Shown: positions 1 to 60,625, counted from the first letter of the stretch. The stretch is DNA of 64,000 bases from an uncultured virus (IMG/VR IMGVR_UViG_3300042922_000636) (IMGVR_UViG_3300042922_000636); one strand, 5' to 3'. The notes: generated from the letters alone by a model not told the origin. Translations and numbers: made by a program.

Positions 1-3
1 ATC

Positions 4-255
4 ATGGCCGCCGAGGAACGCGAACCCGGCGTGTGGATCATGGTCGACCCGCTCGGGCAGGAGTACGGGCGCATCGAGATCCGCCGCACCCCGGACGGCA
101 TCCGCTACCGCGCCGAAGCGCTCGGCGAGCTCATCGGCTGGGGCACCTCGCTCCGCCAAGCCTGCGGGCGCGTGCACGACGTGTTCCTCCGGTCGATGGC
201 ACCTCACCGGGCGGCGCGCCCGGAATGGCCGTCCACCGGTCAGCGTGCACCGTGA
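4..255 (+). CDS. Hypothetical protein, 5'-truncated copy of 37799..38071
   Basis: Identical to the C-terminal 83 aa of the 90-aa ORF at 37799. Confidence 0.75.
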   Translation: MAAEEREPGVWIMVDPLGQEYGRIEIRRTPDGIRYRAEALGELIGWGTSLRQACGRVHDVFLRSMAPHRAARPEWPSTGQRAP

Positions 256-324
256 GAATCCGGTAACGACTGGACTGGGTGTCCGAACGGCGGAGTAGTC
301 TCATCGTCTCCCGAAGATGGGAGC

Positions 325-356
325 GCCCCCGCAGCTGCGTCAACAGCTACGAGGGC
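325..356 (+). promoter_or_regulatory. 5'-UTR RNA hairpin upstream of tyrosine recombinase
   Basis: GCCCCCGCAGCTG-CGTCAA-CAGCTACGAGGGC; covaries with the copy at 38141-38172. Confidence 0.65.
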
Positions 357-387
357 TGACGACACCAAGTCTCAGTTGGAGATCGCC

Positions 388-1293
388 ATGCAGAACGATA
401 CTGCGCGCACGCCCGCGCCCGACACCACCCTCGCCGACATCGCAGCCTCCGGGTTTCTCGCCCGCTACCGCGGCGAAACCATCACCCTCTACTCCGGGGA
501 CCTTCGCATCTTCTACGCCTGGTGCCGACGCCAGGACATCGACCCCCTGCAAGTCATGCGGTACCACCTCGAAGAGTTCCGCCGACACCTCGAAGACGAC
601 CGCGGCAACAGTCCTAGATCCGTCCGCCGGCGCCTGCAGACCCTCCGGACCTTCTACCGCCTCGCTGTCGCCGACGAGTACATCGACCGCGACCCCACCG
701 TCATGCTCCGCCTGCCCGAGAACCGGGCCATGAAGGAACCGCTCTGGCTCGACCGGTTCCAGGTCGGCACACTCCTCCGCGCAGCAGAGGCCGAGTCGCC
801 AGCGCATCACGCGTTGATCGCCCTGATGGTCATGCTCGGGCTCCGGGTGTCCGAGGCGTGCAACGTGCAGATCGAGGACTTCGCCGCCGACAAGCTCGGG
901 TACCGCGTCCTGCGCCTGATCGGGAAGGGCGGGAAGCCCGCAGCCATGCCCGTTCCGGTACCGCTGCTCCGCATCCTCGAGACTGCGCGCGGCGACCGCA
1001 CCTCGGGGCCGCTCATTCTTCGCCGCGACCGCCGTGCCCAGGACCGCAACGGCGCGTACGCGTGGGTGAAGATCCTCGCTCGCAAGGCTGGCCTGCCTGA
1101 GGACACCCACCCGCACTCTCTCCGGCACGCCGCCGTGACCGCAGTGATCGATTCGGGCGCCGATCTCCGCGAAGCACAGGAGTTCGCGCGGCACGCTGAC
1201 CCCGGTATGACGGTGCACTACTACCGCCGCGCCGGGAACCTCGACGCGCATGCAGCGCACGTCGCCGCGCGGGTATTCGCGTCGGCGGTCTAG
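388..1293 (+). CDS. Tyrosine recombinase (XerC/D-like)
   Basis: GLRVSE, GKGGK, HSLRH, RHAD and TVHYY catalytic motifs; GGAG RBS before ATG 388. Confidence 0.93.
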   Translation: MQNDTARTPAPDTTLADIAASGFLARYRGETITLYSGDLRIFYAWCRRQDIDPLQVMRYHLEEFRRHLEDDRGNSPRSVRRRLQTLRTFYRLAVADEYIDRDPTVMLRLPENRAMKEPLWLDRFQVGTLLRAAEAESPAHHALIALMVMLGLRVSEACNVQIEDFAADKLGYRVLRLIGKGGKPAAMPVPVPLLRILETARGDRTSGPLILRRDRRAQDRNGAYAWVKILARKAGLPEDTHPHSLRHAAVTAVIDSGADLREAQEFARHADPGMTVHYYRRAGNLDAHAAHVAARVFASAV

Positions 1294-1409
1294 ACGTCAA
1301 TCACGACTACGTCGCAGCCGCCGCACCACAGCCCATGACCGGCGGGACGCAGCACGGTCCCGCAGGTCGTGCAGCGTGGCTGCTGAACGTCGTCGAGGGG
1401 ATCAACCAT
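1290..1409 (-). CDS. 39-aa zinc-ribbon microprotein
   Basis: MVDPLDDVQQPRCTTCGTVLRPAGHGLWCGGCDVVVIDV with two CxxC; TACCCT-N6-ATG leaderless -10. Confidence 0.5.
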   Translation of the reverse strand: MVDPLDDVQQPRCTTCGTVLRPAGHGLWCGGCDVVVIDV

Positions 1410-2292: not shown

Positions 2293-3723
2293 CTACGGTG
2301 TGAGTGGCGAATCGACGCTGATTCTCGGACTCGCGCCGGCGGGGTGAATTCGGATGCGATCTACCAGCAGTCGTAACGACTCACGCTTCCGTTCGACGGG
2401 GATGTCTTGCCACCGCGACGCTAGGTCGCCGACGAAGGCGACGGGTCGCACGGTGGCCTGTGCGGCGACCCGGTTCAACTCGGCGGTCAGAGCCGCGCGC
2501 TCCGCCTCGAGCTTGACCCGCACGCGCTGGTAGGCGTCGTGCGGGATGGAATCGTCGAGGTACTTCAGCGTGGCGGCGTCAAGGCGTTCGTTCGCTGCGG
2601 CGAGGCGCCGGGCAATGAGCTTCGCCGGGTCCTCGACCAACTGCGGACGGCGGGGCGCTCGCTTCGCTGCTTCGTCCAGGTCGGTGCGGATCCTGGCGAG
2701 CCATTCAATGACGCCCGCCTCGATGACGTGCTCGGCGAGGGAGGCGCTGCCGTGAGACTCATAGTGCGCCGAGCGGACGCACATGTATCGCCGCACGCCG
2801 TGGTCCGTCCGGCCAGACATGGGGCCACCGCAGTGGCAGACGAGTAGGCCGGAATAGGCGTAGGGGGAGCGCTCTGCGCGCGGGCGCCGCCGGCGAGCTT
2901 CACGGGCGTGGGTGAACCGAGCCCAATCGTCCGGGGTGATGACCGGCGGGTGGGTACCCGGGTGGAGCTCCTTTCGGAACAGGATGAAGCCAGCGCCGAA
3001 ACCGGAGTCGAGGACGCGGAGCACCGCGGGGGTGTTCCAGCGAGTGTGTGGTGGGTAGACGCCGTTCTCGTCGGGGGTGGCGTCGGGGTCGCTCAGTCGC
3101 GTCGATAGGTTCTGCGCGGACTCGCCCGCCGCGTAGGAGCGGTACATGTCGGCAAGGATGGGCCCCTCGACCGGGTCGATCTCGTATCCAGTCGACCTCG
3201 AGTACGTGTAGCCGTAGTGCCGTTGCCCGTTCGGTGTGAGACCGAGGCGGACGCGCCGCTCCTGCGTCTCCTTCCACGTCGCCCCGATGGACTCCGCCAT
3301 GAAGGCGGCGTGCTCGGCCATCATGCCGCGGCCGAAGCGCCCGGCTGGCGATCGGTCGTTCGGCTCGGTGGCCGACTCGATGTAGCCCCCAGCGCTCTCG
3401 ATCCTGTCGGAGGCGATCGCCCACTTCAGCCTGTTGCGGGCGGTGCGGTCGATGCGCCAGACGAGCAGGACGTCAGCGTTGCGGGACTCGATCTGCTCGA
3501 TGCCGCGGTCGAGGCGCGGCCACCAGGCCGAGGTCTTCCGAGACCCGGACTCGTCGATGCCCTCGATCCACTCGATGACATCGATGTTCGATCGGTCGGC
3601 GTACTGCTGGATGGCGTAGCGCTGGTTCTCGGGGCTGATCATCCCCTCGCGCTCCTTGGAGACGCGGATCATCGCGACGCCGCGGCGGCGTGCGGGCCGC
3701 GGTGTGGCTGTCAGGTGATTCAC
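2293..3723 (-). CDS. Large serine integrase
   Basis: N-terminal IRVS and WRIDRTAR resolvase motifs, recombinase domain, CHCG..C zinc ribbon and coiled coil; AGGAG RBS. Confidence 0.95.
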   Translation of the reverse strand: MNHLTATPRPARRRGVAMIRVSKEREGMISPENQRYAIQQYADRSNIDVIEWIEGIDESGSRKTSAWWPRLDRGIEQIESRNADVLLVWRIDRTARNRLKWAIASDRIESAGGYIESATEPNDRSPAGRFGRGMMAEHAAFMAESIGATWKETQERRVRLGLTPNGQRHYGYTYSRSTGYEIDPVEGPILADMYRSYAAGESAQNLSTRLSDPDATPDENGVYPPHTRWNTPAVLRVLDSGFGAGFILFRKELHPGTHPPVITPDDWARFTHAREARRRRPRAERSPYAYSGLLVCHCGGPMSGRTDHGVRRYMCVRSAHYESHGSASLAEHVIEAGVIEWLARIRTDLDEAAKRAPRRPQLVEDPAKLIARRLAAANERLDAATLKYLDDSIPHDAYQRVRVKLEAERAALTAELNRVAAQATVRPVAFVGDLASRWQDIPVERKRESLRLLVDRIRIHPAGASPRISVDSPLTP

Positions 3724-5868: not shown

Positions 5869-5972
5869 ACGTCCTCCTGTACATCCCCGCACCCTGGGTG
5901 CCCTGGATCGCAGTCGCCGTGATCATCCTCCTGACGGTCGCGATCGTCGGCATCAGCCAGGTGGGCAAGTGA
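5865..5972 (+). CDS. 35-aa single-TM protein
   Basis: ATGA and GTGA overlaps; hydrophobic. Confidence 0.55.
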   Translation: MNVLLYIPAPWVPWIAVAVIILLTVAIVGISQVGK

Positions 5973-6916
5973 ACGCCCTGGTGATCGTCCCGGACGGCGC
6001 GCCCGAGGACGAATGGCAGGACGGCCGCGCCGGCGGGCCCACCGCCTCCAAGATCCACGACATCGCGTTCGGAAGCCGGAAGACCTGGCGCCGGATCCTC
6101 GACGAGATGCTGAACGGCTCCACGTTCAAGGGCAACGAGCACACCCGCCGCGGGCACGAGTGGGAACCCCGCATCATCGCGGAACTCTCCGACCTGCCCG
6201 GCGTCGTCACCGTGACCCCGTCCTCGGCGCTGTACGGCAACCTCGAGAACCCGAAGCATCGCGCCACCCCCGACGCCCTCGGCCTCGATGCCGGCGGCAC
6301 GCAGTTCGGCGTCGAGGTCAAGCACCACGCCTCCAACTGGACCAGCACGACGATCCCGGTCGCGCACATGGATCAGATGCTCTGGGGCATGCACGTCCTC
6401 GGACTCGACCTGTGGCTCTACGCCTGGGCCGTCGACGGCGAGGACGGCATACAGCACCGCTGGGTCGTCCGCGACGACGACCGCATCGCGTTCCTCGTCA
6501 AGCAGGCGAACACGTTCATCGAATGGCGTGCCGCCGGAGCCCCGGAACTCGACGACATCCCCGACGAGGTCGACGACGCGCTCACCGACTACGCCCGCGG
6601 CCTCGCGCTGACCAGCGAGGGCGACGCGCTCAAGAAGTCGGCCCGCAAGGTCATCGACGAGTACGCGACCACCGCGGCCGTCGAAGGCGAACCGCTCCGC
6701 GCCGGCGGATCCCGCGCCGCCCTGTTCTTCCAGCCGAAGACCGTGCAGGTCCTCGACGAGGACGCATGGGCCGCAGCGGAACCCGAGACGTACGCGGAAT
6801 TCGCGTCGATGCGCGAACGCGTGAAGGCGACCGAGATCGCGGCCGCACAGCTGTACACGAAGACGAAGACGACGGCACCCACGTTCCGCGTCACCAGGAA
6901 CGGAGAGACCGCATGA
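5969..6916 (+). CDS. YqaJ/lambda-exonuclease-like (RecE-like) protein
   Basis: RGHEWEP, ATPDAL, VEVK and QMLWGM PD-(D/E)xK motifs. Confidence 0.85.
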   Translation: MNALVIVPDGAPEDEWQDGRAGGPTASKIHDIAFGSRKTWRRILDEMLNGSTFKGNEHTRRGHEWEPRIIAELSDLPGVVTVTPSSALYGNLENPKHRATPDALGLDAGGTQFGVEVKHHASNWTSTTIPVAHMDQMLWGMHVLGLDLWLYAWAVDGEDGIQHRWVVRDDDRIAFLVKQANTFIEWRAAGAPELDDIPDEVDDALTDYARGLALTSEGDALKKSARKVIDEYATTAAVEGEPLRAGGSRAALFFQPKTVQVLDEDAWAAAEPETYAEFASMRERVKATEIAAAQLYTKTKTTAPTFRVTRNGETA

Positions 6917-7104
6917 CCGTCACCACCCCGCCCCGCAAGAAGTCCGCCGTCTGGGAGGTCGGCGACCCCGTGAACATCGGCCCGATGCGCTGGGTGATCC
7001 GCACGATCAACGGCGAGAACGTCGAGCTCGAGTCCATGAACCAGCCGAACGCGAGCATCTGGTGGACCACCACGCTGCTCAACCTGCCCCGGAAGGACGC
7101 GTGA
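6913..7104 (+). CDS. Hypothetical protein
   Basis: Coupled start/stop overlaps. Confidence 0.6.
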   Translation: MTVTTPPRKKSAVWEVGDPVNIGPMRWVIRTINGENVELESMNQPNASIWWTTTLLNLPRKDA

Positions 7105-7832
7105 TGACCGAGATCGCCACCGCCTACGCGGAATTGCCGCAGACCGCGCCGACCGAGGAGGACGTCGCCAAGACGATCGCGGAGTACGAGACCATCGCGA
7201 TCGGAACGGGCGCCCGCTGCGAGTTCGAGGCTCCCTCGTTCTCCGCTGACGGCGTGACGTGGACGAAGGCGTGGCTCGCTGAGCAGCCGCCGGTGGCCGC
7301 TATGGCTCGTGTGCGTCGTGACGGTGCGGAGTCCGAGGTGGTCGTGCTCTGGCGCGACGTCGTGCCCGCGGATGAGGAATGGCGGAAGCTCTGGGAGCGC
7401 CGCCCGTCCCCGCTGTTCGGTGCATACGCCCGCCGCGCGGTCATCCTGCACGCCTTCCGAGACGTCTTCGGTGAACGGCGCGAACCCGGCGACAACCCGC
7501 GGACGCTGGCGGTCGAGGAGCCGCCGAAGCGCGACTGGGACGCCGAACTCGAAGCGGCGACGTCGTCGGAGCACCTGATGCTCATCTGGGCCGAAGCCCG
7601 CAACCAGCGCGAGCGCACCGCACCCCGCGAAGTCATCTACGAGCGCCGGCTCGCCGAGCTCGAAGCGGCAGAGGCCGACGCCTGGGGCGCTCCGGGAGAA
7701 GCAGCCGCCGAGTCGCGGACGTCGACCGGCGCTCTGCGGCAGACCGTGGCTGATCGCACGCGCGGCATGCCGCGGGACTACCTGAAGCCCTCGTCGCCGA
7801 AGAAGCGGAACCGGAAGCGGGGTCGGCGATGA
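7104..7832 (+). CDS. Bet/RecT-like single-strand annealing protein, divergent
   Basis: DGVTWTKAWL..PP.AA..V.RDG...W..RP..LF...A....HAF resembles the Bet core; follows the exonuclease. Confidence 0.55.
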   Translation: MTEIATAYAELPQTAPTEEDVAKTIAEYETIAIGTGARCEFEAPSFSADGVTWTKAWLAEQPPVAAMARVRRDGAESEVVVLWRDVVPADEEWRKLWERRPSPLFGAYARRAVILHAFRDVFGERREPGDNPRTLAVEEPPKRDWDAELEAATSSEHLMLIWAEARNQRERTAPREVIYERRLAELEAAEADAWGAPGEAAAESRTSTGALRQTVADRTRGMPRDYLKPSSPKKRNRKRGRR

Positions 7833-9060: not shown

Positions 9061-9461
9061 CCGTCACAGCAGCAGACAAGACGGCCGTCATCGACCGCGA
9101 CGGCGGCTTCTGTCTCCTCATGCTCCGCAACTGCACTGGCGAGGCGCAGACCGCCGACCACCGCGCGAACCGCGGTCAGGGCGGAGCGGGCAGCGCTCTC
9201 GACGGTGGCGAGAACCTGATCGCCGCGTGCTCGCTCTGCAACGGCGAGAAGGAGACCGTCACCGGTCTCGTCCGCCTGGACCTCATCGAGCGCGGCCTCC
9301 GCGTCGTCCCCGACTCCACCCACCGCAAGACCCTGCTGCGCGTGCAGCACACGCCCGTGCAGGGGATCGACGGCGAGTGGTGGATGCTCCTGGACACCAA
9401 GACCCGCCGGCACGCGACGCGCCTCGAGGTCGTCCGTCACCTGAGGTCGGTGGCCGCATGA
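9057..9461 (+). CDS. HNH-like endonuclease
   Basis: RDGGFC..C...ADHRANRG..NLIAACSLCN. Confidence 0.75.
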   Translation: MTVTAADKTAVIDRDGGFCLLMLRNCTGEAQTADHRANRGQGGAGSALDGGENLIAACSLCNGEKETVTGLVRLDLIERGLRVVPDSTHRKTLLRVQHTPVQGIDGEWWMLLDTKTRRHATRLEVVRHLRSVAA

Positions 9462-9598
9462 CTGCGCCCAAGCCGTTGACGCACGAGGAACTCGATGCTC
9501 GGGTCCGCTCGCTCGCCGCTGTTGGCGGAATCTACGAGGCCGTGGCGGAGATCGTCGAGCACTACGAGCGCCCGCGATGCATCGAGGCGCGGTCATGA
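9458..9598 (+). CDS. 46-aa conserved phage protein
   Basis: Homologous to 48640..48813 (VRSLA.VGGIYE.VA.IVEHYERPRC). Confidence 0.8.
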   Translation: MTAPKPLTHEELDARVRSLAAVGGIYEAVAEIVEHYERPRCIEARS

Positions 9599-11290: not shown

Positions 11291-11768
11291 GACCGTCATC
11301 ACCGTCGTCGGGAACCTGACCGACGCGCCCGAGCTCCGATACACGCAGAGCGGCCTTCCCGTCGCGAACTTCACGATCGCGTCAACGCCGCGCAGCCTCG
11401 ATCGCGCGAGCGGGGAGTGGAAGGACGGCGACCCGCTGTTCCTCCGCGCGTCGGTGTGGCGTGAGTTCGCGGAGCATGTGGCCGGCTCGCTGAAGAAGGG
11501 CTCACGTGTCATCGCGACTGGTCGTCTGAAGCAGCGCACCTACCAGGACCGTGAAGGCCAGAACCGGACGGCCATCGAGCTCGAGATCGAGGAGATCGGC
11601 CCGAGCCTCCGCTACGCGACCGCCGAGGTCGTCCGAGCCGCCCGCACGGACAACGGCCAGGGGCAGGCGGCGCAGCCGTCGAAAGATCAGTGGGCTCAGC
11701 CCGAGACGACGTCGTGGGACGCATCGCAGCCGGGAGGTGGGTCCTATGGCGACGACACTCCTTTCTGA
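11280..11768 (+). CDS. ssb: Single-stranded DNA-binding protein
   Basis: [14 protein letters not shown]...IGPSLRYA with acidic DDTPF tail. Confidence 0.97.
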
Positions 11769-12498
11769 GCCGGACACCCGCATCGACCTGCTGAACGCGG
11801 TGGATGCTCTCACGGTCGGAACCCGCACGAAGGTCATCCACCATTCGTCGGACGGGGACGTGCACTGCACCTCGGAATGCGTCGAGGGCCAGCACACGCA
11901 CATCTCCACCGCCGTGCAGGCGCCGCTGCTCACTCAGCTGAACGACGCGATCCGAGAGACCATGTCGGCCCGTCCCGGAGGCGGCGCATCCCTCGCTCAC
12001 ACCCGAGGCATGCTCGACTCCGACGCGCTGTACCTGTTCTCCCGCATCGCGTCCACGATCTCCGACTGGGCCTACCAGCTCGACGTCCCGCACCGAGCGA
12101 CTCCGGTCGAGATGCTGCGGGCCTGGTACGTGAAGCGGAACGAGTCCGAGCACGACGACGCGAGCGACCGGTTCCTCACGAAGGTTCTCCGCGGGTGGGA
12201 AGGGCAGATCAACGCCACCCTCGACCCGTCGGAGGAGCAGACGCTCGAGGAACCGTGCCCGAACCCCGACTGCCCCCAGGGCGTCGACGAGCACACCGGC
12301 CGACCCATCTGGTGGAACCGACAGACCCGCACCTCGCAGACGAATCCGCTCATCGTCTCGTACCGCAAGGACGAGCCCGCGAAGCTCGTAGACAACGCCA
12401 GAGCGCGCTGCAGGGCATGCGGAACCGAGTGGTCCGCCCGAGCCCTCGCATGGGAACTCGAGCGGGCCGCCGTCCCGGAACAACAGGACGGGGCTTGA
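11746..12498 (+). CDS. Zinc-ribbon phage protein, possible late regulator
   Basis: CPNPDC...CRAC; same position after ssb as 47873..48643. Confidence 0.7.
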
Positions 12499-12513
12499 CG
12501 TATGTCAACTAGT

Positions 12514-12687
12514 TCAGCGCTTGCGTTTGGCTGCGGCGACGGCCTTCTCGCGGATCCAGACGCCGACGGTCTGCCCTTCGGCGGCTTCGGTGATGAGCGC
12601 GTGTTCGTCGTCGGTGAGGTTCACCATGACGCGCTTGTTGCGGGGGTTCTCGACGGGTGGGCGTCCGCCCTTGTTCGGTTCGGCCAT
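12514..12687 (-). CDS. Ribbon-helix-helix-like regulator
   Basis: GGRPP..NPRNKRVMVNLTDDEHALITEAA...VGVWIRE. Confidence 0.6.
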   Translation of the reverse strand: MAEPNKGGRPPVENPRNKRVMVNLTDDEHALITEAAEGQTVGVWIREKAVAAAKRKR

Positions 12688-12750
12688 TCCTTGAGGATAG
12701 CAGCAACGTTTAAAGTTGCGCGAAAGCGGGTTATGCGTTACGCTAAACCT

Positions 12751-12939
12751 ATGACGAACCACACCGCAGCCCAGGTCCTCGCGAAAAACACCATCGCCGC
12801 TCAGCAGGTCCTGGGGATCGACCGGGGAACCGCATTCGACCTCACCATCGCGGCAATGATCGCCGAGGACCCCGACGCGATGCGCGCCTTCCTCGCCGCC
12901 GCAAAGAGCCAGTACGAGAAAGAGGCGGCAGGTGCCTGA
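12751..12939 (+). CDS. Hypothetical protein
   Basis: TACGCT-N6-ATG leaderless; divergent from the RHH gene. Confidence 0.65.
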   Translation: MTNHTAAQVLAKNTIAAQQVLGIDRGTAFDLTIAAMIAEDPDAMRAFLAAAKSQYEKEAAGA

Positions 12940-13192
12940 GGCGCTTTGGGGTGAGCCCGTAGGGGAGTCTCCGGTACGGGCAGGGCTCGCGGCCGCACGC
13001 GAGATCAACCGGACCAGAGTCTCCTACCTTGAGGATCTCGACAAGCTGCGCCGAGTCCTGGCTGGCGGTGGGACCTTCCCGGAGATGCGGGCCGCCGTGA
13101 ACGCCTTCCAGGTCATCGACAACATCATCGGCGAACTGGAAACGGCCGCAAAGCGAGCGGCGGATCGCGTCGGAGAGGAGCAAGCAGTATGA
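12932..13192 (+). CDS. Hypothetical protein
   Basis: Coupled ORF in small-gene array. Confidence 0.6.
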   Translation: MPEALWGEPVGESPVRAGLAAAREINRTRVSYLEDLDKLRRVLAGGGTFPEMRAAVNAFQVIDNIIGELETAAKRAADRVGEEQAV

Positions 13193-13488
13193 GCGACTCG
13201 CCCCCGATCTATCTCGCTCTCGACCTATGGATTGCGCTCGGGTTGGACTCACGCGAGTTCGACGCCTACTACGGCCGCAACGGCTGGGAGGATACGTGGT
13301 CCAACTTGCTCGGCGAAGTTCGGACCATGCGCGTTCCGTACTGCCTCGCGATGACCGACGAGGGGCCATGCGTCCTACACCGCCACACGGTCGGGCCGCA
13401 CATGGCGGAAGGCGGCGTCGGCCACTTTGAGCCGCTGCCCTTCACCAGCGTCGATAGCCCGAATCAGGAGAACAGGAGTACGAAATGA
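13189..13488 (+). CDS. Hypothetical protein
   Basis: Coupled; ends in boundary linker R1. Confidence 0.65.
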   Translation: MSDSPPIYLALDLWIALGLDSREFDAYYGRNGWEDTWSNLLGEVRTMRVPYCLAMTDEGPCVLHRHTVGPHMAEGGVGHFEPLPFTSVDSPNQENRSTK

Positions 13489-13793
13489 AGTTCACAAACG
13501 GCCAACGGGTGACCCTCACCCACGCTCAGTACGGACAGATCACGGGGACAGTTCACGTTCTCGGCAACGCCAACCCGTACATCCCGCTCGGGTTCACGCA
13601 CCTCACGCTCGGAAAGGGACTCGAGCGCGCCGGCTGGAAGATCACAGACGGCTGGCAGGGAAGCGACCGGTCACGCATCATCGCCATCCTCGACGGTTGG
13701 GACACGGAGACATACGAGGCGAATCAGGGGGCGCTCGTTGATGCCGTGCGAGCCGTTCTGGACCCGTCCAGTGCACAGGGAGGCACAACTTGA
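13485..13793 (+). CDS. Hypothetical protein
   Basis: Lies between linkers R1 and R2. Confidence 0.7.
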   Translation: MKFTNGQRVTLTHAQYGQITGTVHVLGNANPYIPLGFTHLTLGKGLERAGWKITDGWQGSDRSRIIAILDGWDTETYEANQGALVDAVRAVLDPSSAQGGTT

Positions 13794-14275
13794 GCGGTTT
13801 CTATCTGGTCCAGCGCCTTCAGGCGAAGCGCGCACCGCACAGCCCTGCGAAGGGATTCGACGGGTACTTCTCGCTGGACTACATGGGCTCGTCGGAGTTT
13901 GAGTGGGGCGCGATCCCGAAGGCCCTCAAGGCCATGCGCGAACGCCCGGTCGTCGTCGAGCCGCAGACGGTCAGCATCGACGGCCTCGACTGGGACATCC
14001 ATTTCGTCGGACACGAGGGCGTCAGCGCCGCAGGAGAAGCCATGGAGGCGTGGGCGGGTGGCAGCGAACGCCGTCGACCGTTCTACGGCAAGGAGTGGCC
14101 CCAGTTCCACGAAGTGCTCACAGGGCAGCAGTCGGATTACGTCCGCACGAACGCGTGGTGGGACATCGAGAACAACGTCGCCTGGGCCATCGACCCTGCA
14201 GTCGCGGACCTGCTGCGCTCCGCGTTCAACGCTCGCCGGCACACGGATCACACGAACGGTGACCGCGATGACTGA
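13790..14275 (+). CDS. Hypothetical protein
   Basis: TTG start after GGAGG; LDYMGSSEFEWGAIP motif. Confidence 0.7.
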   Translation: MSGFYLVQRLQAKRAPHSPAKGFDGYFSLDYMGSSEFEWGAIPKALKAMRERPVVVEPQTVSIDGLDWDIHFVGHEGVSAAGEAMEAWAGGSERRRPFYGKEWPQFHEVLTGQQSDYVRTNAWWDIENNVAWAIDPAVADLLRSAFNARRHTDHTNGDRDD

Positions 14276-14396
14276 GCTCGTCCTCTGCATCGCCGTCGCG
14301 GCATGTGCAGTCGCCTTCGGTTTCCTTGCCATCGCTGCTGTCGCAGGCGGCGAGGACTCATACGAACAGACCATCAGAGAGCAGGAGGAGCGATGA
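14268..14396 (+). CDS. Small single-TM protein
   Basis: Hydrophobic N-terminus, coupled. Confidence 0.55.
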   Translation: MTELVLCIAVAACAVAFGFLAIAAVAGGEDSYEQTIREQEER

Positions 14397-14926
14397 GCGC
14401 TCGAGCAATGGGTTCGCACCAGTCGGCGCGAGCAAAGACGACGACGTGGCTCACGCCGCCCGAACTGATCGAGGCTCTCGGGCCGTTCGATCTCGACCCG
14501 TGTGCCGCACCCTCGCCACGCCCGTGGCCGACCGCCGCACGGCACATCGAACTCCCGCAGGACGGCCTCGCGGCCGAGTGGGCCGGTCATGTGTGGCTGA
14601 ACCCGCCGTACAGCTTCGAGGCGTGGACGTGGCTCGACAAGCTCGCGAAGCATGGCGACGGAATCGCGCTGATCTTTGCTCGCACGGAGACCGCCGGATT
14701 CGTTGAACAGGTGTGGAAGAAGGCGACCGGCGTCCTGTTCCTGCATGGCCGACTGTACTTCCACCACGCTGACGGCACGCGAGCTGGCGCGAACTCGGGG
14801 GCACCGTCCTGCCTCGTCGCATACGGCGACCGGGCCGCAGAGCGACTCATGACGACGGGCCTGCCTGGCACGTACGTCCCGCTCGCCGCCGAGGCGGGTG
14901 AGAGGAATGAACGCGCCGATGTCTGA
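14393..14926 (+). CDS. Phage Dam-like N6-adenine methyltransferase
   Basis: WLTPP..LGPFDLDPCA...VWLNPPY...FARTET. Confidence 0.9.
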   Translation: MSARAMGSHQSARAKTTTWLTPPELIEALGPFDLDPCAAPSPRPWPTAARHIELPQDGLAAEWAGHVWLNPPYSFEAWTWLDKLAKHGDGIALIFARTETAGFVEQVWKKATGVLFLHGRLYFHHADGTRAGANSGAPSCLVAYGDRAAERLMTTGLPGTYVPLAAEAGERNERADV

Positions 14927-15110
14927 CGCAGCACGCATCGAACTTGCTCGCGGCAACTCAGTCCCGGGCGGACGAATAAGTTCGCTCGGCGCACGCGGAG
15001 TTTCGTTGCTACCGCATTCAGCCAGTAGCTCTATCCAGAGCAATGGCAGGCGGTCATGGGTGGGGCGATGCCGATTCTCAGCTGGGCCGACCGGGGAGGA
15101 GAACCCGTGA
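14919..15110 (+). CDS. Hypothetical protein
   Basis: Ends in linker R4; atypical codon use. Confidence 0.4.
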   Translation: MSDAARIELARGNSVPGGRISSLGARGVSLLPHSASSSIQSNGRRSWVGRCRFSAGPTGEENP

Positions 15111-15280
15111 CCTATACCGATGCGAACCCGGCACCTCGCTTGCATCAGACGGGCTGCACGGACTGGTGCAACCACTGCGCGCTCTGCGGTGTCGGCATCG
15201 CGTTCGGCGCGCGCTGCGCTGAGCACTACGGGGTATACCCGGAAAACTCCCATCCGACCGATTCGGGGCCCGCCGCGTGA
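15107..15280 (+). CDS. Cys-rich hypothetical protein
   Basis: GGAGGA RBS; CTDWCNHCALC..CAEH. Confidence 0.55.
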   Translation: MTYTDANPAPRLHQTGCTDWCNHCALCGVGIAFGARCAEHYGVYPENSHPTDSGPAA

Positions 15281-15591
15281 GGGGGAAGCGTGTGTGCTCC
15301 GTCGACGGGTGCGCGCAGAAGCACAAGGGGCGCGGTTACTGCCAGGTCCACTACCGACGGATCGTGCTGGGGCACAAGCCCCGACCGCAGAGCAAAGCGC
15401 TGATGCGTAGTGACCCCACCGACGAACGGCACGGAACGGTCAATGGGTACTCGAACTGCGACTGTCGCTGCCCGGAGTGCACTCGGGCGCACGCGGACGG
15501 CATCAAGGCCTACTTGGACGCAGACCCGCAGAGGCGCAGAAAGTGGAACGAGCGGCAGCTCGATCGATTGGAGAGGTTGCGGAATGGATGA
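15277..15591 (+). CDS. Zinc-binding hypothetical protein
   Basis: CSVDGC..GYCQVHY and HGT..GY..CDCRCPEC motifs. Confidence 0.7.
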   Translation: MRGKRVCSVDGCAQKHKGRGYCQVHYRRIVLGHKPRPQSKALMRSDPTDERHGTVNGYSNCDCRCPECTRAHADGIKAYLDADPQRRRKWNERQLDRLERLRNG

Positions 15592-15820
15592 GAACAGCCA
15601 AGAGGCATTGCAGGAGGCGGGGCGCGCAGTCGAGGACTACGCGGCGCTGGATCGGGCGATCGGCGGGGTCCTGTTCAACGCCTCCAACTTCCCCGAGCGA
15701 GTCCAGTCTCGGCTACTCGGTCAAAACATGCGGCCGCTGACCGAGAAGATCGCTGACGCGGTGATCGCAGCGGGCTTCGAGCGACGTCAGCAGGCAAGCG
15801 GGGAGGCGCATGCTGAATGA
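15584..15820 (+). CDS. Conserved phage protein
   Basis: Homologous to the N-terminus of 50544..50942. Confidence 0.8.
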   Translation: MDENSQEALQEAGRAVEDYAALDRAIGGVLFNASNFPERVQSRLLGQNMRPLTEKIADAVIAAGFERRQQASGEAHAE

Positions 15821-16625
15821 CGATTGGCGGGCCGCGATTCGTGGGTTCCTTCGCACTGAGCGTGCGGGTGGGAAACCGGAGACCACGGTCACGGCCCGCC
15901 GCTACCACCTGCAGCACCTCGCGAAACGCACCACCCAGGGCCCGTACACGCTCACCGGCGACGACCTCCTCGAGTACACCTCGAAGCAGCCGTGGGGTCA
16001 GGACACGAGACGCGGCCGCCGCACCACCCTGATCCGCTTCTACGAATGGGCGATCGCTGAGGGCCACACCACCGACAACCCGGCACTGGTCCTCCCGAAA
16101 ATCCGCATGCAAGCCGCGACTGCCCGCCCATGCCCCGACCACATCTACCGGCAAGCCCTCACCAGGGCAGCACCCCGCGAACAACTCATGCTCCGCCTCG
16201 CCGGCGACGTCGGACTCCGCCGCGCCGAGATCGCCGGCATCCACACCGACGACCTCATGCACGACCCCGACGGGTGGACTCTCGTCGTCCACGGGAAGGG
16301 CAACAAGGACCGCGTCGTCCCCGTCCCCGACGACCTCGGGCAGCAGCTGGGCGCTAAGCCACGCGGGTACGTGTTCCCCGGCGACGAGAACGGACACCTC
16401 GCACCCCGCACCGTCGGCGTCCTCGTCCGCGACCTCCTGCCCGGACCGTACACGTGCCATCAGCTGCGACACAGGTTCGCGACCCGCCTCTACGCCCGCA
16501 CGCAGGACATCCTTCTCGTCCAGGCCATGCTCGGGCACGCGTCCGTCGGCACCACCCAGCGGTACGTCGCCTTCGACCGCACGACGATGCGAGCCGCCGT
16601 GCAGGCGATGTCCGACGCCGCCTGA
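15810..16625 (+). CDS. Tyrosine recombinase (second family)
   Basis: GLRRAE, GKGNK, HQLRH, LGHAS, TTQRY; close homologue of 52246..53061. Confidence 0.93.
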   Translation: MLNDDWRAAIRGFLRTERAGGKPETTVTARRYHLQHLAKRTTQGPYTLTGDDLLEYTSKQPWGQDTRRGRRTTLIRFYEWAIAEGHTTDNPALVLPKIRMQAATARPCPDHIYRQALTRAAPREQLMLRLAGDVGLRRAEIAGIHTDDLMHDPDGWTLVVHGKGNKDRVVPVPDDLGQQLGAKPRGYVFPGDENGHLAPRTVGVLVRDLLPGPYTCHQLRHRFATRLYARTQDILLVQAMLGHASVGTTQRYVAFDRTTMRAAVQAMSDAA

Positions 16626-37798: not shown

Positions 37799-38071
37799 AT
37801 GCCCGACTGGCACCCGATCATGGCCGCCGAGGAACGCGAACCCGGCGTGTGGATCATGGTCGACCCGCTCGGGCAGGAGTACGGGCGCATCGAGATCCGC
37901 CGCACCCCGGACGGCATCCGCTACCGCGCCGAAGCGCTCGGCGAGCTCATCGGCTGGGGCACCTCGCTCCGCCAAGCCTGCGGGCGCGTGCACGACGTGT
38001 TCCTCCGGTCGATGGCACCTCACCGGGCGGCGCGCCCGGAATGGCCGTCCACCGGTCAGCGTGCACCGTGA
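37799..38071 (+). CDS. 90-aa hypothetical protein
   Basis: Duplicated at the window start; leaderless geometry. Confidence 0.8.
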   Translation: MPDWHPIMAAEEREPGVWIMVDPLGQEYGRIEIRRTPDGIRYRAEALGELIGWGTSLRQACGRVHDVFLRSMAPHRAARPEWPSTGQRAP

Positions 38072-39110
38072 GAATCCGGTAACGACTGGACTGGAAGTCC
38101 GAACGGCGGAGTAGTCTCATCGTCTCCCGAAGATGGGAGCGCCCCGACAGGTGCTGTAACACCGGCCGGGGCTGACGACACCAAGTCTCAGTTGGAGATC
38201 GCCATGCAGAACGATACTGCGCGCACGCCCGCGCCCGACACCACCCTCGCCGACATCGCAGCATCCGGGTTCCTCGCCCGCTACCGCGGCGAAACCGTCA
38301 CCCTTTACTCAGGCGACCTTCGCATCTTCTACGCCTGGTGCCGACGCCAGGACATTGACCCGCTGCAGGTCAAGCGGTACCACCTCGAAGAGTTCCGCCG
38401 ACACCTCGAAGACGACCGCGGCAACAGTCCTAGATCCGTCCGCCGGCGCCTGCAGACCCTCCGCACCTTCTACCGCCTCGCTGTCGCCGACGAGTACATC
38501 GACCGCGACCCCACCCTCATGCTCCGCCTGCCCGAGAACCGGGCCCTGAAGGAGCCGCTCTGGCTCGACCGGTTCCAGGTCGGCGCGCTCCTCCGCGCAG
38601 CAGAGGCCGAGTCGCCCGCGCATCACGCGTTGATCGCCCTGATGGTCATGCTCGGGCTCCGGGTGTCCGAGGCGTGCAACGTGCAGATTGAGGACTTCGC
38701 CGCCGACAAGCTCGGGTACCGCGTCCTGCGCCTGATCGGGAAGGGCGGGAAGCCCGCAGCCATGCCCGTTCCGGTACCGCTGCTCCGGATCCTCGAGACT
38801 GCGCGCGGCGACCGCACCTCGGGGCCGCTCATCCTCCGCCGCGACGGCCGCGCGCAGGACCGCAACGGCGCATACGCGTGGGTGAAGATCCTCGCTCGCA
38901 AGGCTGGCCTGCCTGAGGACACGCACCCGCACTCTCTCCGGCACGCGGCCGTGACCGCAGTGATCGACTCGGGCGCAGATCTCCGCGAAGCCCAGGAGTT
39001 CGCGCGGCACGCTGACCCCGGTATGACGGTCCACTACTACCGTCGTGCCGGGAACCTCGACCGTCACGCTGCACACGTCGCCGCGCGCGTGTTCGCATCT
39101 GCGGTCTAGA
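37817..39110 (+). repeat. Direct repeat copy 2
   Basis: Matches 1-1294. Confidence 0.97.
38204..39109 (+). CDS. Tyrosine recombinase, near-identical to 388..1293
   Basis: Same catalytic motifs; few amino-acid changes. Confidence 0.93.
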   Translation: MQNDTARTPAPDTTLADIAASGFLARYRGETVTLYSGDLRIFYAWCRRQDIDPLQVKRYHLEEFRRHLEDDRGNSPRSVRRRLQTLRTFYRLAVADEYIDRDPTLMLRLPENRALKEPLWLDRFQVGALLRAAEAESPAHHALIALMVMLGLRVSEACNVQIEDFAADKLGYRVLRLIGKGGKPAAMPVPVPLLRILETARGDRTSGPLILRRDGRAQDRNGAYAWVKILARKAGLPEDTHPHSLRHAAVTAVIDSGADLREAQEFARHADPGMTVHYYRRAGNLDRHAAHVAARVFASAV

Positions 39111-39120
39111 ATCCGAGCGA

Positions 39121-39142
39121 TGTCGGTGGCCGACCGCATGAT
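39121..39142 (+). promoter_or_regulatory. PafBC/RecA-NDp-like leaderless promoter
   Basis: TGTCGG-N10-CATGAT-N6-ATG. Confidence 0.6.
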
Positions 39143-39148
39143 GGGGAC

Positions 39149-39370
39149 ATGCTGTCGGCCACCGCGCTCCTCGACTTCGAGCAGAAGTGGGGCAAGCACT
39201 CGGGATGGAAGGAAGAGGCCATCCGCCGGGAGCTCGATATCGCGCCGGCTCGCTACTACCAGCTACTGGATCGCGTCATCGACAGCGAGGAGGCGCTTGC
39301 GCTGCAGCCGATCCTCGTTCACCGGCTGCAGGACCGGCGGACCGCCGCGCGCGCTAGTCGGCGTGGGTGA
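39149..39370 (+). CDS. DUF3263-family protein
   Basis: Homologue of 1457..1693. Confidence 0.85.
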   Translation: MLSATALLDFEQKWGKHSGWKEEAIRRELDIAPARYYQLLDRVIDSEEALALQPILVHRLQDRRTAARASRRG

Positions 39371-39921: not shown

Positions 39922-41148
39922 CTACTGCTCTAGGTAAGCGGTGAGTTGCATCATCGCGCCGCGCATCCGGTCCTGGTTGCCCTTGGTCTTGTAACCGCGG
40001 GTCATGGACCTTGTGGAGTGTCCGACGATCTCCTGGAGAATGTCTTCCGGGACGCCGGCAAGGTAGAGCAGGTCTACCGCTGTGTGCCGGAGGTCGTGCA
40101 GGCGGACGCTGCGGTTCTCGCCGAACACGGACCGCATGAGATTGCCCCATTCGGCGGTGTCCTGGTCGGGGTCGATCGGGCGCCCGCCGTCCCGCGTGAA
40201 CACGAGCCCGTGGGGCCCGGGTTCGAGGGTGCTGATGTGCCGCTCGAGCAGCGTACGGAGGGGGTCGACGAGTGGGATGATGCGCCAGCCCGCGAGGGAC
40301 TTCGGGCGGGTCCAGTACAGGCCGCCTTCGATGCGGCGGTACTCGAAGTCGCTGCGTGTGCGGAGGATCCGGTCGGGGCAGTATCCGCCCTTGACCATCC
40401 CGCACCCGCCGCCGCAGCCGTGTTCCCACGGGAGGCGGCGCAGCTGCCACGACAGATCGAGGGTGTCGGTGACGCGGTCGAGCTCGAGGCCGATGACTTC
40501 GCCGCGGCGCGCCCCAGTGAGGAGGCTCGTCGCGCGCCGGGTGCCGTCTGCTCGGCCGGCGCACACCTGCAGCAGCTGCAGCGACTCCTCGGGCGTGAGG
40601 ACGTCGAGTTTCACGGCTGCCTTGCGCGGTGCCTTCACGAGTTGTGTCGGGTTCCGCGGGATCTTCCCCTCCCGCATGGCCGCGGTGAGGGCGCTCGACA
40701 GGATCCGGTGCGCGTTGAGCGCGTAGGTGGACGACAGGCCCAACCCGGTCATGCGGTCGTGCATCCGCCGGATGGAGGCGGCGTTCAGCTTTTCGAGCTT
40801 CGTCTTCGCGCCGAGGCCCGGGGAGATGTGCGTCTTTACCATGGACCGGTAGCCGGCGAGGGTGCCGGGCGCGACGTCGTGGATGGCGATGTGGTCGAGC
40901 CAGTACTCGAGCCACTGCTCGACCGTAGGTGAGGACGTCGCAAGGTCTCCGCTGCGGCGCAGGTCTTCCTTCACCTCAGCGAGCCGGGTTAGCAGGGTCG
41001 TCTTGTCGCGGGACCGGATGGTCTTCCGCCGGCGGTCCTTTGCGAGTCCTGTCGGGTTCGGGAGTTCGACGTACGCCTGCCAGTACTTGAGGGGCTGCGT
41101 CCGATCGGCTGGCACCCGGAACAGTGCGCCTTCGCCCTTTCCCCTCAC
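39922..41148 (-). CDS. Tyrosine integrase (phage B)
   Basis: GEG arm-binding N-terminus, TVEQWL..W, GARRGE, HDLRH, VGHS, MTRGY; next to the att core. Confidence 0.95.
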   Translation of the reverse strand: MRGKGEGALFRVPADRTQPLKYWQAYVELPNPTGLAKDRRRKTIRSRDKTTLLTRLAEVKEDLRRSGDLATSSPTVEQWLEYWLDHIAIHDVAPGTLAGYRSMVKTHISPGLGAKTKLEKLNAASIRRMHDRMTGLGLSSTYALNAHRILSSALTAAMREGKIPRNPTQLVKAPRKAAVKLDVLTPEESLQLLQVCAGRADGTRRATSLLTGARRGEVIGLELDRVTDTLDLSWQLRRLPWEHGCGGGCGMVKGGYCPDRILRTRSDFEYRRIEGGLYWTRPKSLAGWRIIPLVDPLRTLLERHISTLEPGPHGLVFTRDGGRPIDPDQDTAEWGNLMRSVFGENRSVRLHDLRHTAVDLLYLAGVPEDILQEIVGHSTRSMTRGYKTKGNQDRMRGAMMQLTAYLEQ

Positions 41149-43543: not shown

Positions 43544-43629
43544 CCCCGTTCCTCGTCATCGCCGCCCTCATCGGCCTGTTCATCGTCGTCATGGAACTGG
43601 CCGGCGCACCGAAAGCAGGTGCCCGGTGA
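43540..43629 (+). CDS. 29-aa TM peptide
   Basis: ATGA and GTGA overlaps. Confidence 0.5.
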   Translation: MTPFLVIAALIGLFIVVMELAGAPKAGAR

Positions 43630-43790
43630 ACTCCATGGCCCTGTTCCTGCTGATCTTCGGCGCGGTTCTTCTCATGGGCGCCGCGCTCACCGAGTCCGGG
43701 TGGACCGTCGTCGGCTTCATCGGCATCACGTTCGTCGTTCTCGGGCTCATCATCCACTGGGCCACCGCCGGGACGGACGCGCTGAGATGA
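43626..43790 (+). CDS. Small two-TM protein
   Basis: Hydrophobic, coupled. Confidence 0.55.
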   Translation: MNSMALFLLIFGAVLLMGAALTESGWTVVGFIGITFVVLGLIIHWATAGTDALR

Positions 43791-44719
43791 CCTTCACCAT
43801 CGTCGAAGTCACGCCCGACACCCTCGAGTGGGAAGAGGAACGTCGTCGCAGCGTCGGCGCTTCCGAAGCCGCCGCCGTCATGGGGATGTCCTCGTACGGG
43901 AACACGGCCCTGGACATCTACCGACAGAAACACGGCATCGACCGCGCGTTCGACCCGCTGCTCGCATGGATCGGACACCAGTCCGAGCCGATCATGCACG
44001 CCTGGGTGGAGGACTTCTCCGGCCTGGGGCTGACGCTCCTCCCTGGGTTCATGGCGAGATCCGTCGAGCACCCGTTCCTGCACGCCACGTTCGACCGGTG
44101 CACCACGAGCGGCCTCAAGATCCAGATGAAGACCGCGCATCACTACACCGGCCACCACTGGGACGACGGAATCCCGACCGACATCCGTGTTCAGGTTCAG
44201 GCGGAGATGGCCGTCTCTGGCGACCCGAGAGAGCTCGTCGTCGTCTGGATCGGCGGGCGGGAGTTCCGGTACTTCTGGGAAGCCCGCGACGACCGGTTCA
44301 TCGACGAGTACCTGATCCCGCAGCTGCACGCGTTCTGGCACGGCAACGTCCTCGCCGGCGTCGCGCCGGATCCGTCCACCATGCGTGAGGTGAACGAGGT
44401 CCTCACCGACCAGAGACCAGTCGACCTCTCGGATACCGCATTCGACCTGCTCGAAGAGATCACGGTCCTTAATAGCGACATCCAGTCGATGACCGAAGAG
44501 CGGGACGCGAAGAAGGTCGCCCTCGCCCAGTACGTCGGGCCGGCCGACACCCTCCTCCACCGGGGCCGGAAGGTCGCCACCTGGCGCTCCCAGAAGGGGC
44601 GCGTCGGGTTCGACAAGGCCGGGTTCGCCGCCGAGCACCCCGACCTCCTCGCCGCTTTCACAACCGTTGGCGCCCCGTTCCGTGTGCTTCGCCGCACCAA
44701 GACCAAGGAGAACTCATGA
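43787..44719 (+). CDS. YqaJ-like exonuclease (RecE-like)
   Basis: W...RR.SVGASE, HPFLHATFD, QMKT, QVQ.EMAVSG. Confidence 0.9.
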   Translation: MTFTIVEVTPDTLEWEEERRRSVGASEAAAVMGMSSYGNTALDIYRQKHGIDRAFDPLLAWIGHQSEPIMHAWVEDFSGLGLTLLPGFMARSVEHPFLHATFDRCTTSGLKIQMKTAHHYTGHHWDDGIPTDIRVQVQAEMAVSGDPRELVVVWIGGREFRYFWEARDDRFIDEYLIPQLHAFWHGNVLAGVAPDPSTMREVNEVLTDQRPVDLSDTAFDLLEEITVLNSDIQSMTEERDAKKVALAQYVGPADTLLHRGRKVATWRSQKGRVGFDKAGFAAEHPDLLAAFTTVGAPFRVLRRTKTKENS

Positions 44720-45495
44720 GCGACCTCACTCAAGCGGCCGTCGCCGCGAAGAAGGACCCGACGATGAAGGAACTCGTCGAAGCCCAGATGCCGGCGATCG
44801 AGCGGCAGCTCGGCGGCGCGATGAACTCGGATGCGTTCGTCAGAGCGATCCTTTCCGAGATCGGAAAGTCCCCGGACCTGATGGCCGCGGACCCGAAGAC
44901 CCTGCTCGGCGGCGTGATGCTCGCCGCTCAGCTGCGCCTCGAGATCGGTTCCGGGCTCGGAGAGTTCTACCTCACCCCGCGCAAGGAGCGCGGGCGTCAG
45001 ATCTGCCTGCCGATCATCGGATACCAGGGCTTCATCAAGCTCGCGTTGCGCTCCGAGTTCGTGTCGAACGTGCAGGCGTTCCTCGTTCGGAAGGGCGACC
45101 AGTTCTCGTACGGCGCGAACGCTGAGCGAGGCATGTTCTACGACTGGGTCCCGCAGGACTTCGAGGAAACCCGCGACTGGATCGGCGTCGTCGCCACCGC
45201 GAAGATGCGCGCCGGCGGGACGACGTGGGTCTACCTCACCCGCACCCAGGTTCTCGATCGGCGCCCGTCGTACTGGCAGTCGACGCCGTGGAAGACGAAC
45301 GAGGACGAGATGGTCAAGAAGACCGCCGTCCGGGCACTCGCGAAGTTCTTGCCGAAGTCGACGGATCTGGGGCGCGCGCTCGAGGCCGACGAAGCGAAGG
45401 TGCAGACCCTCCGCGGAGTCGACGAGGTGCAGGTCACCCGCATCGACGAGCCGGAGACGATCACGGTCGAGGAGAACACGGGGGCCCAGTCATGA
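44716..45495 (+). CDS. recT: RecT recombinase
   Basis: AAQLRLE..LGEFYLTP..IIGYQG..LA.RS...PW....EM.KKT.VR.LAK.LPKS. Confidence 0.93.
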   Translation: MSDLTQAAVAAKKDPTMKELVEAQMPAIERQLGGAMNSDAFVRAILSEIGKSPDLMAADPKTLLGGVMLAAQLRLEIGSGLGEFYLTPRKERGRQICLPIIGYQGFIKLALRSEFVSNVQAFLVRKGDQFSYGANAERGMFYDWVPQDFEETRDWIGVVATAKMRAGGTTWVYLTRTQVLDRRPSYWQSTPWKTNEDEMVKKTAVRALAKFLPKSTDLGRALEADEAKVQTLRGVDEVQVTRIDEPETITVEENTGAQS

Positions 45496-50299: not shown

Positions 50300-50301
50300 T
50301 C

Positions 50302-60604: not shown

Positions 60605-60625
60605 CAACGACCCCCAGGAGGCATC

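Follow-up and report, generated by a model that had tools for sequence, protein, structure and literature searches.

Two prophage-like genomes, A and B, both on the plus strand, lie in a 64,000-nucleotide (nt) stretch of DNA from an uncultured virus (IMG/VR IMGVR_UViG_3300042922_000636; hereafter, the window), and in both of them a series of short gene-boundary sequences, which we call linkers, recurs in a fixed order while the genes between them differ. The first-pass annotation of this stretch had named six linkers (R0 to R5) and read them as addressed slots for modular gene exchange, served either by RecET or, in an integron-like way, by an adjacent tyrosine recombinase. The idea of addressed slots fits the comparative data, namely the order of the linkers, the differing genes between them, and the positions at which homology breaks, but the integron-like route does not. 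As a comparative inference from sequence, linker-mediated modular exchange in which translational junctions serve as the linkers is supported, and we lean toward the specific reading that these junctions, with their translation-initiation signals, would act as Botstein-type linkers for short-homology recombination by RecE/RecT-type enzymes or host RecA.

Anatomy and order of the junction linkers

Phage A spans approximately 2.3 to 34.5 kb of the window, and phage B extends from approximately 39.9 kb up to its end. Their common gene order runs from RecE/RecT-like genes and SSB through small genes with a DNA methyltransferase to a 271-amino-acid (aa) tyrosine recombinase and the packaging genes. 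Each linker joins a gene end to the ribosome-binding site of the next gene, as had been proposed: it comprises the last 6–9 codons of the upstream gene, followed by the Shine-Dalgarno (SD) sequence and start codon of the downstream gene. The frame of the upstream open reading frame (ORF) through each linker is the same in both phages, the encoded tails being PEQQDG, SPNQENRS, SSAQGGTT, DHTNG, PTGEEN, and H(P/S)TD(S/P)G, and the next start usually overlaps the stop codon, as ATGA, GTGA, TTGA, or an 8-nt overlap. Between A and B, the linkers match at 18/19 positions for R0, 26/26 for R1, 24/24 (extending to 29/30) for R2, 13/14 in the core of R3, 20/20 for the three copies of R4 (20-mers starting at 15086 in A and at 51456 and 51631 in B), and 16/18 for R5. 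The coordinates reported for these six are correct for all 13 of 13 copies, with no further copy on either strand of the window, and reading the junctions themselves added three elements, R0.5, Ry, and Rx. The resulting order is R0-R0.5-R1-R2-R3-R4-R5 in A and R0-R0.5-R1-R2-Ry-Rx-R3-R4-R4-R5 in B.

In A (all linkers are on the plus strand in both phages, and tails are written up to the stop codon), R0 (12474–12501) encodes the tail ..VPEQQDGA of a DUF7341 gene (11746–12498) and runs into a vestigial SD and ATG, with no plus-strand gene directly after it. R0.5 (13173–13192; GAGAGGAGCA..ATGA) closes an 86-aa ORF (12932–13192) with ..GEEQAV and starts the gene at 13189–13488, which ends in SPNQENRS within R1 (13454–13479; 26/26 with B), where the SD for the gene at 13485–13793 also lies. 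The tail of that gene, SSAQGGTT, falls in R2 (13766–13795; 24/24, or 29/30, with B and with phage C, introduced below), which supplies the TTGA start of 13790–14275. R3 (14246–14270; ATCACACGAACGG..) encodes ..DHTNGDRDD and starts 14268–14396; R4 (15084–15109; 20/20 with B and C, 22/22 with phage D) provides the GTG start of 15107–15280; and R5 (15248–15279) encodes the tail of the latter, ..HPTDSGPAA, and starts 15277–15591. R4 is preceded in A by approximately 180 nt (14927–15106) without coding periodicity in any frame (GC content at third codon positions ≤0.68; GC 63%). Its tail there is probably untranslated, and in view of the missing coding signal, the conservation of R4 in A is not at the protein level.

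The non-coding stretch at 14927–15106, which sits between a Dam-like methyltransferase and R4, may be a decayed cassette. After R0 in A, where an apparently vestigial ATG stands at 12502, a divergent pair takes the place of a plus-strand gene (12509–12939): a 58-aa minus-strand ORF (12509–12685; ribbon-helix-helix-like by eye, no Pfam match) and a 62-aa plus-strand ORF (12751–12939), separated by a more AT-rich spacer. Taken together, this resembles an inserted unit that carries a promoter region of its own.

In B, R0 (48783–48813) encodes the tail ..TPEQQDGTTP of a small gene (48640–48813) and the ATGA start of a C5 methyltransferase (48810–50135), which ends in ..REEQTA within R0.5 (50116–50135), the start of 50132–50299. 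R1 (50271–50296) is followed by R2 (50517–50549; 31/31 with C), which supplies the ATGA start of 50544–50942. Within this gene, where its A-like N-terminal part ends, lies Ry (50730–50759), a 26-nt island that is exact in phage F over 50730–50755 and in phage G over 50734–50759. Rx (50927–50945; TGGGGGTGCGGCATGAGCG) is common to C, E, F, and G and is also a generic junction word. R3 (51215–51240) encodes ..DHTNGSTR and starts 51238–51483. The two copies of R4 (51451–51483 and 51626–51658) form the left and right arms of a 33-nt direct repeat (32/33) around a 60-aa gene (51476–51658), and the second copy starts 51651–52028, whose tail, ..RHHSTDPGGG, lies in R5 (51996–52030), the start of 52028–52252. 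The gene at 50544–50942 is a mosaic, in which an A-like N-terminal part is followed by Ry and then by another C-terminal part ending in Rx; it belongs to a small-protein family with the motif ..AD(A)(V/I)(L/I)AAGF.., members of which occupy three different slots (15584–15820, 50544–50942, and 51476–51658).

The genes between the linkers are, as had been claimed, mostly unrelated in A and B, with bodies on both sides that lack similarity by blastp and blastn; of 15 ORFs scanned in the array region, 12 match no Pfam family. When 21 ORFs of A are compared by blastp with 14 of B, the pairs consist of SSB (74% aa identity), the recombinase (86%), and tails only. Blastn of the A half against the B half (word size 7) yields nine high-scoring segment pairs in all: a duplicate of 1.3 kb at the left extreme of each phage; to the right of it, a match of 69% (1425–1642 and 39117–39331), over the B-side DUF3263 gene; the SSB gene in two segments (85–86%); the recombinase (80% identical in nt and 86% in aa); two short gene bodies placed differently in A and B; and R1 (26/26) and R2 (29/30) as isolated islands. 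The SSB genes are also 79–83% identical in nucleotides to that of Microbacterium phage Min1. As a caveat, one shared gene body is out of order (A 15629–15778 = B 50586–50735) and one stands in a different slot (A 9502–9581 = B 48690–48769). The gene at 9458–9598 in A ends in ..RPRCIEARS, and its homologue in B (48640–48813) ends in ..RPRCTDAHTPEQQDGTTP, which is R0. One gene body thus carries different tails according to its slot, and the linker therefore belongs to the position, not to the gene.

Such junctions might also be expected by chance or pure convergence, given that a G-rich SD, a spacer, and ATGA are what high-GC phages place between genes, in which case their order would be accidental. 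Rx is found exactly in 22 IMG/VR contigs, including the three related phages E, F, and G, and in 17 distinct viral contexts with GC contents of 48–72%, far above the composition-based expectation of approximately one match; as a generic junction word, it may be identical in B and C by convergence. The 15-mer of R3 has 105 IMG/VR matches, approximately the chance level by estimate and mostly not at junctions (a start codon follows 4–9 nt downstream in 32 of 82 matches examined), and a metagenome scan with the R4 20-mer calls for caution, returning nine contigs, seven with the 20-mer inside one and the same unrelated gene and none with a start codon following it. Against an origin by chance, exact scans of IMG/VR place R1 (as the 26-mer and as its first 17 nt) only in B and C, R2 in B and C, and R4 in B, C, and D, all within these phages. 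R1, R2, and R4 are exact islands of 20–26 nt between A and B in surrounding DNA without other similarity, and the seven elements that follow the same order in A and B recur in C, E, and F. In non-homologous phage pairs, the forward exact matches of at least 20 nt are the linkers, whereas the reverse-complement control reaches 16–17 nt at most, save for one 20-mer; ungapped matches with a score of at least 16 among seven array regions number 31 forward and 2 in the reverse-complement control. R0, R3, and R5 are each near chance level in the A/B comparison alone and carry weight because they recur in the same order in more phages. Chance is already refuted for R1, R2, R4, and the order, and possible for Rx alone, so that as a general account we hold it to be very improbable.

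Beside these counts, we noted that the Rx 19-mer consists of the SD, a spacer, ATGA, and GCG, and stands at gene junctions in the contexts that we labeled L106–L127. An unrelated high-GC phage (L149/L165, IMGVR_UViG_3300037070_001552) carries two copies of an R3-type word, CCACACGAATGGGAG, 164 nt apart and each 5–8 nt before an ATG, and thus a linker-gene-linker unit.

Recurrence, breakpoints, and the exchange reading

Five further IMG/VR phages, with backbones partly unrelated to A and B, carry linkers: C (IMGVR_UViG_3300042922_000673), D (IMGVR_UViG_3300042922_000744), E (IMGVR_UViG_3300042922_000700), F (IMGVR_UViG_3300042923_000773), and G (IMGVR_UViG_3300042934_000727). A sixth record, IMGVR_UViG_3300042934_000459, is 100% identical to B across 19,504 nt and is for that reason not an independent relative. 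The order first noticed in A and B extends to C (R0.5-R1-R2-Rx-R4-R5, plus R0-like and R3-like junctions), E (R0-R1-Rx-R3-R4), and F (R0.5-R1-R2-Ry-Rx-R3-R4-R5), and in part to G, which has only Ry-Rx-R3; the only linker of D is R4, which ends a WhiB gene and encodes its C-terminal tail. Apart from the linkers, C and D are almost without nucleotide similarity to A and B, and the GC content of C is lower (63% versus 67%). Despite their unrelated backbones, B and C match at 31/31 positions in R2 and 24/24 in R4, and their linker identity totals 107 nt. The flanks differ throughout: each of the eight R4 copies, which are spread over seven phages, has an upstream flank and a downstream flank found at no other copy, the downstream genes differ at every shared linker, and R4 alone is repeated, twice in B. 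Among cultured phages (INPHARED, blastn), we found no linker, the matches being confined to methyltransferases and a small Min1 match at 50939–51104.

Breakpoints of homology tend to coincide with the linkers. A 508-nt block shared by B and F at 92% identity starts at 50270, the first base of R1, with unrelated DNA upstream; the blocks shared by C and E (85%, 1,075 nt) and by C and F (92%) both start at R5; and C and G have in common a methyltransferase body (87%, 681 nt) that extends from the R0 junction as far as R0.5. A rough count, in which reciprocal comparisons enter twice, places 25 of 42 block ends no more than 25 nt from a linker; such zones cover approximately 20% of the array length. 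The homology between A and F at 13791–14238 begins one base past R2 and stops 8 nt before R3.

Two soil-metagenome contig sets that contain phage B (98% of sampled words), and from either of which the window may derive, were mapped to B at 50100–52300. Their contigs break at R2 and Rx, leaving unitigs of 36 nt and 39 nt, and the depth in the linker bins is 3–11 times that of phage B in the two sets; in set X2, against approximately 64–67 for B, the bins of R2, Rx, and the second R4 copy reach summed depths of 596, 720, and 187, respectively. The loose contig ends include the flanks of A and others not recognized among those of A–D, and contig joints correspond to other phages with two linkers. 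The excess depth and the new flanks imply several linker-bearing genomes, some of them more abundant than B, although part of the Rx excess may come from unrelated organisms.

From this observed anatomy, order, spread, and breakpoint coincidence, we infer recombination within the linkers and the enzymes that would perform it. Between their replication and packaging genes, these temperate actinophages have a hyperplastic array of small, translationally coupled accessory genes, and each junction in it is a composite of the last upstream codons, the SD, a spacer, and the start codon of the following gene, which usually overlaps the stop. At least eight such elements stand in fixed order across several lineages while the gene bodies between them are replaced. 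On our reading, the linkers would stay where they are because translation of the following gene depends on them. Their identities of 17–33 nt between phages would also offer sites at which short-homology recombination, by RecE/RecT-type enzymes or host RecA, could cross over when phages co-infect a cell or prophages reside together, and an exchange resolved inside a linker would automatically be in frame and expression-ready. Homologies of approximately 20–30 nt are the minimum for RecT/Red-type enzymes or RecA. A encodes a RecE-like exonuclease (5969–6916) and a weak RecT-like ORF (7062–7832), B encodes a RecE-like exonuclease (43619–44719) and RecT (44716–45495), all on the plus strand; RecE/RecT-like genes are also present in D, and C has a RecE-like fragment and RusA. 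The presence of these genes makes a phage-borne short-homology route plausible.

Several observations weigh against this mechanism. No recombination event is seen in the contigs examined, and islands with unrelated DNA on both flanks need several events each or a large unsampled pool of linker phages. RecET genes are common in temperate actinophages and are hence not specific evidence. Among the related phages C, E, and F, the linkers are 90–96% identical and the backbone 85–93%, which is about equal conservation and could reflect simple inheritance; the comparison is, moreover, biased because linkers are defined by identity. The recurrence of Rx across 17 viral contexts of widely differing GC, and of the R3 15-mer at approximately the chance level, indicates that some junction words arise or persist without linker-mediated exchange. 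Finally, the 76% homologue in F of the A gene at 13790–14275 lies approximately 8 kb from the F array and has other junctions, so linker homology cannot in every case have brought a new body into its slot; a homology-poor event is probably required when a gene body first arrives there.

The main rival explanation is selection alone, with junctions kept as translation or coupling signals, or as sites of an unknown regulator, while gene bodies are swapped by illegitimate or microhomology events near gene ends; survivors would be those that keep both flanking junctions, and linkers would mark places where exchange is tolerated, not catalyzed. Consistent with this are the SD 5–9 nt before the start codon in every linker, the poor structure of the linkers, the retention of R4 in A despite an upstream "gene" without coding signal, the roughly equal identities of linkers and backbone among C, E, and F, a body in the R2–R3 slot of A that comes from another genomic context, and the presence of Rx, and partly R3, in unrelated phages of very different GC, which suggests functional convergence. 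However, an SD needs 5–8 nt, not 24–31 identical nt that include third codon positions, and both the 107 nt of linker identity between B and C on unrelated backbones and the 33-nt repeat around one gene in B count against this account. The three to five independent replacements per slot would, in addition, all have to stop at the same eight codons before the stop. We regard selection alone as improbable, though as an explanation to be taken seriously, and prefer exchange at the linkers.

A bolder version of linker-mediated exchange would make the ordered linkers a recombinase-independent, expression-ready, multi-slot cassette system common to a soil actinophage community, in which single accessory genes, each bounded by linkers, would pass between unrelated backbones via RecT-type annealing at 20–30-nt identities, perhaps as circles derived from linker-gene-linker units; we find this attractive but somewhat doubtful.

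The adjacent tyrosine recombinase

Both arrays end, as had been noted, at homologous, intact tyrosine recombinases of 271 aa (15810–16625 in A and 52246–53061 in B, both on the plus strand; 86% aa identity), which are distinct from the phage integrases, a serine integrase in A (2293–3723, minus strand) and a tyrosine integrase in B (39922–41148, minus strand). The 271-aa protein has a PF00589 domain, no arm-binding domain, and a Xer-like character, and its catalytic residues (R138, K163, H217, R220, H243, and Y252) do not vary in any of the 44 relatives aligned. Its family is large (2,317 matches at E ≤ 0.001), its named relatives come from Microbacterium and other Microbacteriaceae, and the nearest solved chains are 4a8e (XerC-like) and 5vfz (Gp33). 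All NCBIfam Xer equivalogs score below cut-off, and the protein is therefore not XerC or XerD proper. A search of genome contigs gave, among the matches listed, only a 26%-identical Streptomyces protein.

That each array is followed immediately by an intact, conserved recombinase, over and above the integrase of the phage, invites the integron-like reading, in which this enzyme would treat the linkers as recombination sites and the genes as cassettes. Some encouragement also comes from R3-like or R5-like junctions upstream of related recombinases in 3 of the 44 loci with at least 800 nt of upstream sequence (L009–L011). By tblastx against the arrays, L010 and L011 returned composition noise only. 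The distribution of linkers and recombinases nevertheless largely refutes it. R0, R1, R2, and R4, searched with up to three mismatches, occur in 0 of 79 independent IMG/VR recombinase loci, and the recombinase family is found in none of the five further linker phages (C–G), the sole match there being one of 13.5 bits within a 419-aa ORF of E, presumably its integrase. A tblastn search for the TerL and portal proteins of A and B in the 79 loci gave only two matches, too diverged to locate the recombinase relative to the packaging genes.

The linkers themselves do not resemble recombination sites of this kind either. They are mutually different, share no core beyond the SD, and have inverted-repeat arms of just 3–7 nt and no hairpin. 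When 16 linker windows were folded as single-stranded DNA, z exceeded 0 for 13 of 16 top strands, and 14 of the 16 windows had a minimum free energy weaker than the mean of the array (−9.4 kcal/mol). Weak folding of this sort is what one would expect where ribosomes load. Integron-integrase models score 57 bits (TIGR02249, cut-off 265) and 36–38 bits (NF011946, cut-off 435), with an alignment that covers only approximately 40 C-terminal residues, and the recombinase gene lies downstream of the array in the same direction. With no co-occurrence in either direction, no folded sites, and integrase scores below cut-off, the integron-like half of the original proposal is abandoned: we consider it extremely improbable, and membership of the adjacent 271-aa recombinase in the linker system is not supported.

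Two observations on the records of this recombinase family may be added. Many IMG/VR provirus contigs begin 0–300 nt from the 271-aa recombinase gene, and many are approximately 15–17 kb long (L017, L020, L026, L028, L031, L040, L042, L045, L049, L051, L055, L057, and others). The provirus boundary was probably called at this "integrase" and the early region cut off, so that such records would hide arrays like those of A and B. Three recombinase-bearing phages also share a conserved, tRNA-gene-like stretch of 36–43 nt upstream of their arrays (L009 at 3020, L010 at 1050, and L011 at 2372).

Known systems and neighboring features

Short boundary sequences at modules are a feature of lambdoid phages. 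In the linker model of Botstein and Campbell, as recounted in later phage-genome papers (PMC2839356; PMC3029335), exchangeable modules are bounded by short conserved sequences, which hold them in position and in their regulatory context and are the suggested sites of homologous exchange. The arrays of A and B resemble this model in having conserved short sequences at module boundaries in otherwise non-homologous DNA and in keeping them in the same order, with alternative modules between, in different phages (A, B, C, E, and F, with G and D partial). They differ from Botstein or lambdoid linkers in that each linker is both a translation-initiation junction and the coding sequence for the C-terminal tail of the protein before it, that the modules are single small genes, that at least eight linkers stand in fixed order within approximately 4 kb, and that the hosts are high-GC Actinobacteria.

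The PeSL of T4-type phages is, in the account of Arbiol et al. 2010 (PMC2839356), one repeated motif, an early promoter with a terminator stem-loop, that isolates each gene transcriptionally; such motifs flank ORFans in hyperplastic regions, and recombination between them shuffles single genes and yields mini-circles. Here too, ORFans are flanked by motifs in a hyperplastic region, including the R4-gene-R4 unit of B, whose 33-nt direct repeat around one gene would, by analogy, be the kind of unit that yields PeSL mini-circles. The linkers, in contrast, are mutually different, have no hairpins (no promoter scan was made), and couple genes translationally. A similar repeat is described at Island3 of Cluster I mycobacteriophages, where the C-terminal residues and DNA of an inserted ORFan repeat the tail of the upstream gene (gp67/gp68), an arrangement that the authors attribute to recombination between sequences of approximately 50 bp (Pope et al. 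2011, PMC3029335). The R4-gene-R4 unit is alike in form, but whereas Island3 is a single case in one phage pair, the R4 tail is common to seven phages and stands within an ordered series.

The SAS/ESAS of Cluster K mycobacteriophages is presented by Pope et al. 2011 (PMC3203893) as one motif before many genes of one genome, linked to translation initiation, with ESAS staying with the downstream gene family. The junctions described here likewise consist of a conserved word with an SD a few nucleotides upstream of start codons, but each has its own sequence and is not tied to the downstream gene. With integrons, they share the ordered array of promoterless single-gene cassettes beside a tyrosine recombinase; unlike integrons, they lack an IntI-type integrase, attC-like folded sites, and an attI/Pc arrangement, and the recombinase and the linkers do not co-occur. 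The literature searched holds no description of such junction linkers, although no search was aimed at junction repeats of Microbacterium phages.

An old question on phage mosaicism is whether modules are exchanged in a targeted manner at conserved linkers or joined at random by illegitimate events that selection then filters. Clear linker cases are few, and this region is unusually clean, with at least eight junctions, a fixed order, and a different ORFan in almost every slot; if the linkers are crossover sites, two co-resident prophages that carry RecET-like genes make the question directly testable. Exchange of this kind would account for the spread of accessory genes such as methyltransferases, WhiB, and ORFans between phages with reading frame and translational coupling already in place. 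Were the multi-slot cassette system real, a translation-initiation site would double as a recombination address, and the array would be the translational equivalent of the T4 PeSL and, in function, an analogue of integrons. As a practical warning, exact junction words of 19–31 nt break assemblies at k = 31 and can mislead k-mer-based calls of host or relatedness.

Outside the arrays, a duplicate of 95.7% identity lies to the left of each prophage (window positions 1–1294 and 37817–39110) and encodes an 83–90-aa ORF and a 305-aa XerC/D-like tyrosine recombinase (PF00589 plus SAM-like N-terminal domains); counting this enzyme, there may be three recombinases per phage. The B-side duplicate is followed by a DUF3263 gene (39149–39370), the A-side counterpart of which (1425–1642) is 69% identical, and stretches resembling the DUF3263 region also occur in phage D, close to its integrase, and where contig C ends. 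Within the structural region of phage B, positions 60532–60605 are occupied by a tRNA-Asn (GTT) gene.

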